This document shows positions 1 through 3,000 of a stretch of 7,625 nt of DNA, one piece after another (the first letter of the stretch is position 1; every line of letters starts with the position of its first letter). The stretch covers positions 1 to 7,625 of IMG/VR virus record IMGVR_UViG_2778261660_000014. One strand, given 5' to 3'. The stretch comes from a virus (Duplodnaviria; Heunggongvirae; Uroviricota; Caudoviricetes). Position numbers: made by a program.

Positions 1-3000
1 TAACGAAGTTTGCGTAACAGCATTTTGCTCTACGAGTTTGCCAGCCTCCCCCAGTGGCTGGCTTTTTTATGTCCGTAGCGTCAAAGCAGCAATGTCGCTG
101 GGGCGTCGTGCAATTGGCGTTGAGCTGGAGACTGAACGTTTTGAGCAGACGGTCAGGGAAGTTCAGGATTTAGTCAGTCAGAACGGATGATATTGCAGGA
201 TTAGTTACGTACCGTTATTATCCTGCGCCCGGCCCTTTAGCTCAGTGGTGAGAGCGAGCGACTCATAATCGCCAGGTCGCTGGTTCAAATCCAGCAAGGG
301 CCACCATATCACATACCGCCATTAGCTCATCGGGACAGAGCGCCAGCCTTCGAAGCTGGCTGCGCGGGGTTCGAGTCCTCGATGGCGGTCCATTATCTGC
401 ATTATGCGTTGTTAGCTCAGCCGGACAGAGCAATTGCCTTCTGAGCAATCGGTCACTGGTTCGAATCCAGTACAACGCGCCATATTTATTTACCAGGCTC
501 GCTTTTGCGGGCCTTTTTTATATCTGCGCCGGGTCTGGTGCTGATTACTTCAGCCAAAAGGAACACCTGTATATGAAGTGTATATTATTTAAATGGGTAC
601 TGTGCCTGTTACTGGGTTTTTCTTCGGTATCCTATTCCCGGGAGTTTACGATAGACTTTTCGACCCAACAAAGTTATGTCTCTTCGTTAAATAGTATACG
701 GACAGAGATATCGACCCCTCTTGAACATATATCTCAGGGGACCACATCGGTGTCTGTTATTAACCACACCCCACCGGGCAGTTATTTTGCTGTGGATATA
801 CGAGGGCTTGATGTCTATCAGGCGCGTTTTGACCATCTTCGTCTGATTATTGAGCAAAATAATTTATATGTGGCCGGGTTCGTTAATACGGCAACAAATA
901 CTTTCTACCGTTTTTCAGATTTTACACATATATCAGTGCCCGGTGTGACAACGGTTTCCATGACAACGGACAGCAGTTATACCACTCTGCAACGTGTCGC
1001 AGCGCTGGAACGTTCCGGAATGCAAATCAGTCGTCACTCACTGGTTTCATCATATCTGGCGTTAATGGAGTTCAGTGGTAATACAATGACCAGAGATGCA
1101 TCCAGAGCAGTTCTGCGTTTTGTCACTGTCACAGCAGAAGCCTTACGCTTCAGGCAGATACAGAGAGAATTTCGTCAGGCACTGTCTGAAACTGCTCCTG
1201 TGTATACGATGACGCCGGGAGACGTGGACCTCACTCTGAACTGGGGGCGAATCAGCAATGTGCTTCCGGAGTATCGGGGAGAGGATGGTGTCAGAGTGGG
1301 GAGAATATCCTTTAATAATATATCAGCGATACTGGGGACTGTGGCCGTTATACTGAATTGCCATCATCAGGGGGCGCGTTCTGTTCGCGCCGTGAATGAA
1401 GAGAGTCAACCAGAATGTCAGATAACTGGCGACAGGCCCGTTATAAAAATAAACAATACATTATGGGAAAGTAATACAGCTGCAGCGTTTCTGAACAGAA
1501 AGTCACAGTTTTTATATACAACGGGTAAATAAAGGAGTTAAGCATGAAGAAGATGTTTATGGCGGTTTTATTTGCATTAGCTTCTGTTAATGCAATGGCG
1601 GCGGATTGTGCTAAAGGTAAAATTGAGTTTTCCAAGTATAATGAGGATGACACATTTACAGTGAAGGTTGACGGGAAAGAATACTGGACCAGTCGCTGGA
1701 ATCTGCAACCGTTACTGCAAAGTGCTCAGTTGACAGGAATGACTGTCACAATCAAATCCAGTACCTGTGAATCAGGCTCCGGATTTGCTGAAGTGCAGTT
1801 TAATAATGACTGAGGCATAACCTGATTCGTGGTATGTGGGTAACAAGTGTAATCTGTGTCACAATTCAGTCAGTTGACAGTTGCCTGTCAGACTGAGCAT
1901 TTGTTAAAAAAATTTCGCATGGTGAATCCCCCTGTGTGGAGGGGCGACTGGTGAAAAATCCTTGCTTGTGATTCATTATCGACACGGGTTCGGTGGTACC
2001 AAGCCGAACTCACCGGGAGGCACCCGGCACCATGCAGTATACAGAGATTAGGCATATACCAAGGCCTCTCATAGCAGGGGCCTTTTTACATGTAAAAAAA
2101 GCCCGAGTGGGTTCGGGCAATTGCATGAGATACTCGTTTTAATAATCGAAAGCATTTTAACCAGGATTCATAAGGCTGCGCAACTGCGCGGCCTTTTTCG
2201 TATTTCGGGCTGTAGTCTTCCTTCTGCCATTGTCCTGTAACTTCCGGACTTCAGCCCGCTCCTCATCTGACTCACACATTATCCCGACCGGGAGGATTCA
2301 TGGCATTTAAACACTATGACGTGGTCAGGGCGGCGTCGCCGTCAGACCTTGCGGAACGAATAACTCAAAAACTGAAGGAAGGGTGGCAGCCTTATGGTAG
2401 TGCGCTGATTTCGACAGCTGGTTATGGTGCGGAGTTCATCCAGCCAGTTGTGAGTGAGGGGAGCATCTCATCACCAGAGGAGCCAGGCAACCGTCCGACG
2501 ACCTCAGCGCCTTCTGTTGCGCCAGAATATTACTATGTGATCGCGCTTGCTGGTCAGTCCAATGGTATGTCATACGGTGAGGGACTGCCATTACCGGATA
2601 CATTCGACAGTCCTGATCCACGAATTAAACAGTTAGCGCGTCGCAGTACGGTGACACCGGGAGGTGCCGCCTGTAAGTATAACGACATCATTCCGGCGGA
2701 CCATTGTCTGCATGATGTGCAGGACATGAGCCGCCTTAACCATCCGAAAGCGGACCTGTCAAAGGGGCAGTACGGAACCGTGGGGCAAGGGCTGCATATC
2801 GCCAAAAAATTGCTGCCGTTTATACCGGCGAATGCGGGCATTCTGCTGGTTCCGTGCTGTCGTGGTGGTTCAGCGTTCACCACCGGAGCCGATGGCACAT
2901 ACAGTGACGCGAGTGGTGCCTCGGAGAATTCAACCCGCTGGGGTGTGGACAAGCCGCTGTATAAGGACCTTATCGGTCGAACAAAAGCAGCACTGAAGAA

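Follow-up and report, generated by a model that had tools for sequence, protein, structure and literature searches.

The spacer between stx2B and nanS-p (positions 1814-2299 of the window, i.e., the whole stretch of 7,625 nucleotides of phage DNA analysed here) very probably holds a convergent pair of small RNAs (sRNAs) already published for Stx phages, where they follow the toxin genes as an 'sRNA dyad': STnc100/EcOnc27 on the plus strand and AsxR on the minus strand. Both RNAs were seen by Hfq crosslinking and northern blot by Tree et al. (2014), who named them as the convergent sRNAs EcOnc27 and EcOnc02, and a review describes the pair as a 'dyad' at the 3′ end of stxAB. By BLAST, the spacer of VT2-Sakai is 98.2% identical to the one studied here, and the transcript ends used throughout come from publications on strains Sakai and EDL933 rather than from this exact sequence. 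The initial annotation suggested a small structured RNA as a possible product of the region. The general idea stands, since two RNAs are encoded, but it is not new, both of them having been described before. The back-to-back convergent terminators, which were thought unusual for a phage late operon, are nothing of the kind here, as they are part of the published dyad arrangement, which strain Sakai has in at least eight of its lambdoid prophages.

Taken as a whole, the spacer folds at -166.8 kcal/mol, against -143.6 ± 6.7 kcal/mol for its shuffles (z = -3.47), none of 100 of which was as stable. Folded one by one, all seven stem-loops previously listed are where they were said to be and fold as claimed. 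On the plus strand these are the hairpins at 1866-1896 (-13.3 kcal/mol, z = -3.15), 1929-1944 (-8.1 kcal/mol, z = -1.6), 1986-2011 (-12.7 kcal/mol, z = -3.7) and 2013-2027 (-7.7 kcal/mol, z = -2.1), the terminator hairpin at 2062-2088 (-12.1 kcal/mol, z = -3.0) and the hairpin at 2174-2198 (-16.5 kcal/mol, z = -4.5), with one further terminator hairpin on the minus strand at 2094-2118 (-11.1 kcal/mol, z = -4.2). A consensus scan for terminators places two in the spacer, at 2172-2195 (plus) and 2118-2101 (minus), and finds 15 terminator-like sites in the entire window, where 7.1 ± 2.3 are expected. Weak matches to the Rfam family Leu_leader at 2137-2199 (plus) and 2168-2260 (minus) were rejected as terminator-driven noise (24 and 22 bits, respectively, against a gathering threshold of 50).

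Listing of the ORFs on both strands bears out that none in the spacer reaches 60 aa, the longest being of 55 aa (minus strand, 1888-2055) and 49 aa (plus strand, 1993-2142). It is scarcely credible, then, that the conservation of the spacer reflects coding constraint, with one or more small proteins encoded in it. Hypothetical ORFs are annotated in the spacer in some phage records, and ribosome profiling does place footprints on STnc100 copies, including the EDL933 copy at 1353605 (206 nt, plus strand; coverage 1.51). This last copy is taken to be the one downstream of stx2B. The existing ORFs, however, start with GTG or TTG or cross both terminators; conservation in the invariant core GCATGGTGAATCCCCCTGTG.GGAGGGG extends to all codon positions, and the length of the frame varies between alleles; and compensatory base-pair changes fit a constraint acting on the RNA.

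Those changes are found in the plus-strand member of the pair. Positions 1888-2093 match STnc100 (RF02076), alias EcOnc27 or sRNA103, over the full length of the model (1-206) and with 206.9 bits against a gathering threshold of 47. According to the literature, EcOnc27 is the same RNA as sRNA103 (described in EDL933 by Gruber and Sperandio 2015) and overlaps STnc100, whose reported start, 75 nt after the stx2 operon, agrees with its position here. It consists of a closing helix (1917-1924/2028-2035), the hairpins 1929-1944, 1986-2011 and 2013-2027, and a terminator stem (2062-2082) followed by its U run (2083-2087). A comparison of copies is in favor of this structure: RNAalifold predicts 33 consensus pairs from 13 STnc100 copies, six of them with compensatory changes and none lost, with a single non-canonical U-C cell, and the fold of the single sequence agrees with the consensus. 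The northern probe with which Tree et al. detected EcOnc27 corresponds to the reverse complement of window positions 2033-2067; in Sakai it detects bands of about 235 and 247 nt, and the Hfq-CRAC peak lies over the 3′ part of the RNA. In full-length match, position, strand, multi-hairpin core and terminator nothing of substance differs between the published RNA and the copy in the window, although the former extends further 5′ than the Rfam model. STnc100/EcOnc27 accounts for five of the seven hairpins. This RNA is reported to be an expressed, Hfq-bound transcript in the case of the 98.2% identical Sakai copy and, by analogy, the plus strand of the window would produce an Hfq-binding sRNA of some 230-250 nt, whose core and own terminator would account for the first five stem-loops of the spacer. 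The idea that STnc100 might be the IpeX sRNA of the cryptic prophage DLP12 was rejected, no Rfam match with E ≤ 0.01 being found in positions 572000-578500 of K-12.

The sizes seen in northern blots imply that the 5′ end of EcOnc27 lies upstream of the start of the Rfam model. The 12-bp bulged hairpin at 1866-1896, which overlaps the first 9 nt of the model, is thus inside the RNA and only in part inside the model. It belongs to the variable 5′ part of STnc100/EcOnc27, where other alleles have hairpins at the equivalent place but in different registers and where RNAalifold finds no consensus structure among 24 distinct 5′ variants, so this hairpin is best seen as allele-specific. The candidate 5′ ends are position 1888 according to the Rfam model, approximately 1842-1854 according to the northern sizes, and approximately 1861-1863 according to a -10-like block at the left edge of the conserved module (1846-1865). 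In this block TAATCT (1850-1855), which reads TTAAAT in most alleles, is followed by CACAATTCAG. Alignment of 11 spacers and BLAST indicate that what precedes it (1814-1845) is an stx2-specific 3′ flank of stx2B, since homology to stx1 phages and to phages lacking stx begins only at about 1846 (BLAST coverage for non-stx2 phages starts at query position 42-46). The block itself is kept in distinct variants carrying the CAATTCA motif, located after stx1B, stx2B, a tRNA terminator, Q or terB, and could be the promoter and 5′ end of EcOnc27. A second conserved arrangement, TTGCCT-18-TGtTAAAAA, would instead predict a start at about 1917. Both arrangements are candidates read from the sequence, and neither of them is convincing.

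No strong consensus promoter was found upstream of EcOnc27, and one could argue from this that EcOnc27/STnc100 is a 3′-UTR fragment processed from the stx2AB late transcript, with its hairpins acting mainly as mRNA stabilisers or processing sites. STnc100 does begin only tens of nucleotides past the stop codon of stx2B, the northern sizes of 235 and 247 nt reach within 30-40 nt of that codon, and a stretch of STnc100 is complementary to stx2B (1892-1902 with 1720-1730; ten Watson-Crick pairs and one G-U pair). Still, such an origin seems improbable to us, given that the module also occurs with no stx gene before it, immediately behind a tRNA terminator or behind Q or terB, that E. coli O157 genomes have many STnc100 copies which are expressed in uninduced cultures, that Hfq-CRAC found EcOnc27 in non-induced cells, and that binding of RpoD at STnc100 promoters was reported in Salmonella. 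As to the complementarity, the 11-nt 'exact' match to stxB described in PMC12370729 holds only with the G-U pair counted in (1892-1902 with 1720-1730); the longest pure Watson-Crick matches between the two, located elsewhere, are of 9 nt.

Of 5426 complete E. coli genomes, 2928 carry sequence similar to the module, at a median of two places each. The module is found after stx1B, stx2B, tRNAs, Q and terB, as well as in phages without any toxin gene, and, judging by these locations, the module travels independently of stx. In the window STnc100 has tRNAs, stx2AB, nanS-p, holin and lysozyme genes on its flanks, a context shared by 13 related loci, and is located between Q/late promoter and the lysis genes; the dyad would occupy this place in many lambdoid prophages, with the Q-dependent late promoter on one side and the lysis genes on the other. 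A comparable layout was described in EPEC prophages (Pearl Mizrahi et al.; Zhu, Shabalina and Storz 2026, the sources for PasD1/PasD2 and PasA/PasC), where PasD1 and PasD2, by description structurally related to STnc100, adjoin a sialate esterase gene and PasA is reported to lie on the other side of that gene. The order observed here, i.e., STnc100, nanS-p and a short minus-strand sRNA-like element, matches that of PasD and PasA.

On the minus strand, positions 2096-2148 match the anti-sRNA AsxR (RF02703, EcOnc02) with 88.1 bits, against a gathering threshold of 63, and every position is identical to the consensus. It starts at C2148 and ends with a terminator stem (2118-2101), found by scan and fold, and a U run (2100-2094); the minus-oriented terminator at 2094-2118 is AsxR's own. 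Tree et al. (2014) place asxR in antisense orientation to stx2AB, 282 bp on its 3′ side, and convergent with EcOnc27. Counted from the stx2B stop at 1813 this leads to position 2095, and the 3′ end of AsxR here, at 2096, is 283 nt past that stop. The AsxR of these authors is an anti-sRNA of the Stx2 phage Sp5 that sponges FnrS: its 5′ region pairs with the loop of the FnrS terminator and destabilises this RNA. We found no difference between the published AsxR and the copy in the window, which equals the family consensus over 53 nt and agrees in the distance from stx2B, the antisense orientation and the terminator and, the sequences being identical, the published pairing with FnrS should apply here too. 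The 53-nt AsxR converges on STnc100 and ends 6-8 nt away from it.

AsxR also has a sigma-70 promoter of its own (2154-2183, minus strand), by sequence, at the 5′ end that Tree et al. mapped by 5′ RLM-RACE. It consists of a -35 element TTGCGC (2183-2178), an 18-bp spacer and a -10 element TAAAAT (2159-2154), with 5 nt left to the +1 at C2148, and was missed by the simple promoter scan because its -35 element agrees with the consensus in only three of six positions. All 85 distinct related upstream regions have TTGCGC-18-TAAAAT or TATTAT, and in each of these loci the promoter is followed by an RNA of 55-75 nt ending in a GC hairpin and a U run. At least three unrelated classes of sRNA alleles are found downstream of this promoter, whose geometry is also present in a phage without nanS-p. 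One known relative is AgvB (RF02702, EcOnc01), the anti-GcvB sRNA of prophages Sp10 and Sp17, which has in common with AsxR some 40 nt of the 3′ part, the terminator, the TTGCGC-18-TAAAAT geometry and convergence on an STnc100-type sRNA, but differs from it in the variable 5′ (seed) region. The AgvB model scores 43.9 bits on the copy in the window, matching only the common 3′ part; as this is below its gathering threshold of 56, the copy is AsxR and not AgvB.

The initial annotation further postulated a short plus-strand transcript, starting from TTGCAT (2121-2126) and ATAATC (2142-2147) and ending at the 2174-2198 terminator. Both hexamers exist, 15 bp apart, but a role as promoter, and with it the transcript, is not supported. 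The pair lies inside asxR, on the opposite strand, and the scan, which accepts spacers of 16-18 bp, reports no plus-strand promoter there. A sigma-70 promoter was defined as having a 16-19-bp spacer and a -10 element that ends in T, whereas here the spacer is of 15 bp and ATAATC ends in C. Nor is the pair conserved: TTGCAT is lost in AgvB-type alleles, ATAATC lies in the variable 5′ region of the anti-sRNA, and the whole stretch is unrelated in other allele classes. We therefore judge it very unlikely that a third short sRNA, of about 45-50 nt, starts just after ATAATC, about where asxR has its 5′ end or slightly past that point, which would make it overlap the asxR promoter region and not the gene body. 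What speaks for it, besides the presence of the hexamers and of a strong plus-strand terminator, is that segment 2121-2200 folds somewhat better than its shuffles (z = -2.4) and that the 2174-2198 terminator is conserved across alleles. This terminator, however, persists where the TTGCAT stretch is replaced, meaning that its conservation is independent of any TTGCAT/ATAATC promoter, and the minus-strand -35 element explains the conservation of the hairpin. In the Hfq-CRAC table of Tree et al., EcOnc02 and EcOnc27 are the sole sRNAs listed for this part of the Sakai genome.

The hairpin in question, a GC-rich stem followed by a T run (2172-2198, plus strand), has ten pairs, seven of them GC, and a loop of four. 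With TTTCGTATTT coming after the TT of the stem, it has the sequence features of an intrinsic terminator. At the same time its left arm and loop are, on the other strand, the TTGCGC of the asxR promoter. Its inner 6 bp hardly vary, whereas pairing of the outer 4 bp is limited to AsxR/AgvB-type alleles, so that most alleles keep a 6-bp stem only; one allele class has its T run at a shifted place. If it does terminate, this hairpin would stop plus-strand transcription that escapes the STnc100 terminator, and such a back-up would shield nanS-p and the lysis genes from sRNA-driven transcription in lysogens. Once the phage is induced, polymerase modified by Q should pass all three terminators, which would put sequence antisense to AsxR into the late transcript.

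It is conceivable, if doubtful, that the hairpin has no terminator function and is kept only for the asxR -35 element, the T run being an upstream A-tract of that promoter (minus strand, -46 to -50). The invariant bases TGCGCAA are those of the -35 element, between 19 and 22 of the 31 variants fail to form the outer pairs of the stem, and one allele class (L084) retains TTGCGC with almost no stem. Against this, another class (L011/L036) forms its 6-bp hairpin with different bases, having CG instead of GC at columns 33-52 and 34-51, a phage lacking nanS (L013) also keeps the hairpin and a T-rich tail, and in the window a stem of 10 bp with five U's makes a strong terminator by the standards of the scan.

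Further downstream, the 5′ leader of nanS-p contains one more hairpin (2206-2258, plus strand), absent from the earlier list, which folds at -18.5 kcal/mol (z = -3.6) and consists of an outer stem of 7 bp (2206-2212/2252-2258) and an inner one of 5 bp (2214-2218/2246-2250). Over 31 distinct variants 94.4% of its cells are paired, five of its 12 pairs have changed on both sides, and it matches no Rfam family. Next to it, the Shine-Dalgarno sequence GGGAGGA (2290-2296) and the ATG of nanS-p at 2300 occupy positions 2290-2302; this motif is conserved, but it also served as the search anchor. A hairpin over the Shine-Dalgarno sequence was discarded, as its fold does not surpass that of shuffles (z = -0.06) and its stem was fixed by the search pattern. 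As one tentative proposal with two parts, hairpin 2172-2198 may be dual-use (asxR -35 element on one strand and, on the other, a back-up terminator overridden by Q, with the resulting antisense silencing AsxR), and hairpin 2206-2258 may be a cis element of the nanS-p leader, acting on stability, processing or translation; we put this forward with less confidence than doubt. Our literature search found no description of a terminator before nanS-p, and both the double promoter/terminator look of 2172-2195 and the covarying hairpin at 2206-2258 appear to be unannotated and undescribed.

In conclusion, the content of this spacer is already known, having been characterised in 2014 and revisited since. 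What the comparison adds is the existence of at least three anti-sRNA allele classes behind one invariant promoter, a third terminator-like hairpin that overlaps the asxR -35 element, and a covarying hairpin in the nanS-p leader. In most GenBank/RefSeq records of these phages the spacer has either no annotation or spurious ORFs; it should be labelled 'STnc100/EcOnc27 + AsxR dyad'. In a 2025 study of O157:H7 isolates, haemolytic uraemic syndrome was predicted most strongly by sequence features of the spacer downstream of stx2B that overlap STnc100/EcOnc27.

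The window comes from an Stx2a-converting lambdoid phage and represents its Q-to-lysis segment. Three tRNA genes (231-482) come first, and the ORF list then gives stx2A (573-1532), stx2B (1544-1813), nanS-p (2300-4237) and, downstream of the latter, holin, lysozyme and spanin ORFs. The spacer between stx2B and nanS-p (1814-2299) shares 100% identity with many Stx2a phage records and with E. coli O121 RM8352, and 98.2% with prophage VT2-Sakai (Sp5). GenBank and RefSeq records leave it mostly unannotated, or lay hypothetical ORFs across its sRNA genes; STnc100 is annotated in only one of 60 phage records, among the records listed. 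At the window start, upstream of the tRNA genes, a GC hairpin is followed by a T run (38-70, + strand; gccagcctcccccagtggctggcttttttat), and the tR' terminator and StxS sRNA have been described in Stx phages at the matching position.

The initial annotation saw in this spacer seven stem-loops and no ORF reaching 60 aa, and its observation of a hairpin-dense region is confirmed: the ORF list holds none of that length, each stem-loop folds as described (-7.7 to -16.5 kcal/mol, most clearly beating shuffles), and the whole spacer has a folding energy of -166.8 kcal/mol, where shuffles give -143.6 +/- 6.7 (z -3.47). A consensus scan places terminators at 2172-2195 (+ strand) and 2118-2101 (- strand). 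The accompanying idea of a structured small RNA was right, but the RNAs are those of the published STnc100/EcOnc27-AsxR dyad, and the finding is therefore already known. Only two points are possibly new, namely the overlap of a promoter with a putative terminator at 2172-2198 and a covarying hairpin in the nanS-p leader.

Two matches in an Rfam scan of the spacer exceed the curated gathering thresholds. The first is a full-length STnc100 (RF02076) at 1888-2093 on the + strand (206.9 bits, gathering score 47), with three internal hairpins (1929-1944, 1986-2011 and 2013-2027) enclosed by a closing helix (1917-1924/2028-2035), and a terminator at 2062-2088. Across 13 copies from diverse phages, RNAalifold gives a consensus structure of 33 pairs, with one non-canonical U-C cell; because six of these pairs vary in a compensatory way and all are retained, the covariation check proposed for the spacer is positive, for an already known family. 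According to a 2025 paper STnc100 begins 75 nt past the stx2 operon, and 1813 + 75 = 1888 is the Rfam start in the window. Window 2033-2067, reverse-complemented, is the EcOnc27 northern probe of Tree et al. (2014, PMC4104026), who saw bands of about 235 and 247 nt and recovered the RNA by Hfq crosslinking (supplementary table). A 2025 genomic study, whose strongest HUS predictors are sequence features of this spacer, identifies EcOnc27 as the sRNA103 of EDL933 and points out the overlap with STnc100. The RNA is bound by Hfq, and fimZ and espA transcripts increase when it is overexpressed.

Judging from the published RNA sizes, the hairpin at 1866-1896 (+ strand), in the variable 5' part of STnc100/EcOnc27, would lie inside the EcOnc27 transcript; the Rfam model starts within it and overlaps it by 9 nt, and no consensus structure emerges there across alleles, whose hairpins use differing registers. 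Candidate EcOnc27 starts are predicted near 1861, from a conserved -10-like block (1850-1855), and near 1917, from TTGCCT (1881-1886), 18 bp and TGtTAAAAA (1902-1910). The latter motif, on the + strand within STnc100, occurs at unchanged spacing in about 73 of the 76 distinct variants, counting an allele with an unrelated 5' part where the counterpart is TTGATT-18-TAtTAAAAA; it is to be read either as an internal promoter whose -10 does not end in the usual T, or as a conserved RNA motif (e.g., an A-rich Hfq site). An 11-nt direct repeat, TCAGTTGACAG, occurs in stx2B (1726-1736) and again in the left half of hairpin 1866-1896 (1870-1880), and the published complementarity of STnc100 to stxB (1892-1902 with 1720-1730) needs one G-U pair to hold.

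The second match, AsxR (RF02703) at 2148-2096 on the - strand (88.1 bits, gathering score 63), fits the consensus exactly and has its terminator at 2094-2118; AgvB, an anti-GcvB sRNA, scores 43.9 bits at this position, below its threshold of 56. In phage Sp5, EcOnc02 (AsxR) and EcOnc27 were described as convergent sRNAs 3' of stx2B (Tree et al. 2014, PMC4104026), the EcOnc02 gene lying antisense 282 bp 3' of stx2AB and its 54-nt RNA being recovered by Hfq crosslinking (supplementary table). In the window, 1813 + 282 = 2095 adjoins the AsxR 3' end at 2096, and the positions of STnc100 and AsxR in the window agree with the literature base for base. The ends of the two RNAs are 6-8 nt apart and flank a palindrome, ACATGT, and the pair is termed a dyad in a 2021 review, bookending stxAB together with StxS. 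AsxR base-pairs with the FnrS terminator loop, reduces FnrS levels and relieves chuS repression (PMC4104026). Of 5426 complete E. coli genomes, 2928 contain similar sequence (median two places per genome, maximum 12), and back-to-back convergent terminators, previously taken for an oddity, are therefore the rule among these phages. The sRNA module occurs behind stx1B, a tRNA terminator, Q and terB, and homology with stx1 phages and toxin-less phages runs from about 1846 to the nanS-p start.

A short + strand RNA, starting from TTGCAT (2121-2126) and ATAATC (2142-2147) and ending at the 2174-2198 terminator, had also been proposed and is very improbable: both hexamers fall inside asxR, which is on the opposite strand, their spacing is 15 bp and the promoter scan did not report them, TTGCAT is changed in AgvB-type alleles and other allele classes carry different sequence throughout the segment, and the table of Tree et al. 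holds no further Hfq-bound sRNA at the corresponding Sakai coordinates. On the minus strand, upstream of the AsxR start (C2148), stand TTGCGC (2183-2178), 18 bp, TAAAAT (2159-2154) and 5 nt to +1. Annotated phage records and a pattern search of viral contigs, with the nanS-p ribosome-binding site as anchor, together supplied 85 distinct upstream regions, and in all 85 TTGCGC is followed after exactly 18 bp by TAAAAT or TATTAT and then by a 55-75-nt RNA with a terminal GC hairpin and U run. These RNAs form at least three unrelated allele classes behind one promoter (in the anti-sRNA slot equivalent to 2096-2160, at related loci L003-L005, L007-L009, L011, L036 and L084); those other than AsxR and AgvB (e.g., ...CUUCACGUUUUGUUGUUUAUUCCUUGCCGCCCGCGUCUCCCAGCGCGGGCUUUUUU) match no Rfam family at E <= 0.01. 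A phage without nanS-p has the same promoter arrangement.

This asxR promoter overlaps a + strand terminator-like hairpin (2172-2198). Among 31 distinct variants, the inner 6 bp of the hairpin (2172-2195) hardly vary, the outer 4 bp are paired only in AsxR/AgvB-type alleles, and one allele class keeps a hairpin there through different bases. The promoter explains this conservation at least in part, because its -35 element is the left arm and loop of the hairpin. A further role as + strand back-up terminator is plausible, since in the window the hairpin has 10 bp and five U's, and no other + strand terminator comes after that of STnc100.

The nanS-p 5' leader holds another hairpin, missing from the initial list (2206-2258, + strand; -18.5 kcal/mol, z -3.6). 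Across 31 distinct variants 94.4% of its cells are paired and five of 12 pairs show changes on both sides, clearly exceeding slid-partner controls; the Rfam scan gave no matching family. Beyond nanS-p, a short sRNA-like unit (4237-4350, - strand; fold z -4.6) converges on its stop codon, with a minus-strand terminator and T run (4258-4246), TTGACA-17-TAAAAA upstream as read by eye, and a weak match to Esr41 (RF02676) at 4237-4314 (28.1 bits, gathering 102). It may be the counterpart of the PasA/Esr41-type sRNA that has been reported on the other side of the sialate esterase gene.

Taken as a working scheme, each sRNA would be transcribed in lysogens from a promoter of its own and end at its own terminator, with the 2172-2198 hairpin stopping + strand read-through. 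After induction, Q-modified polymerase would pass all of these terminators, and the late transcript would then include sequence antisense to AsxR.
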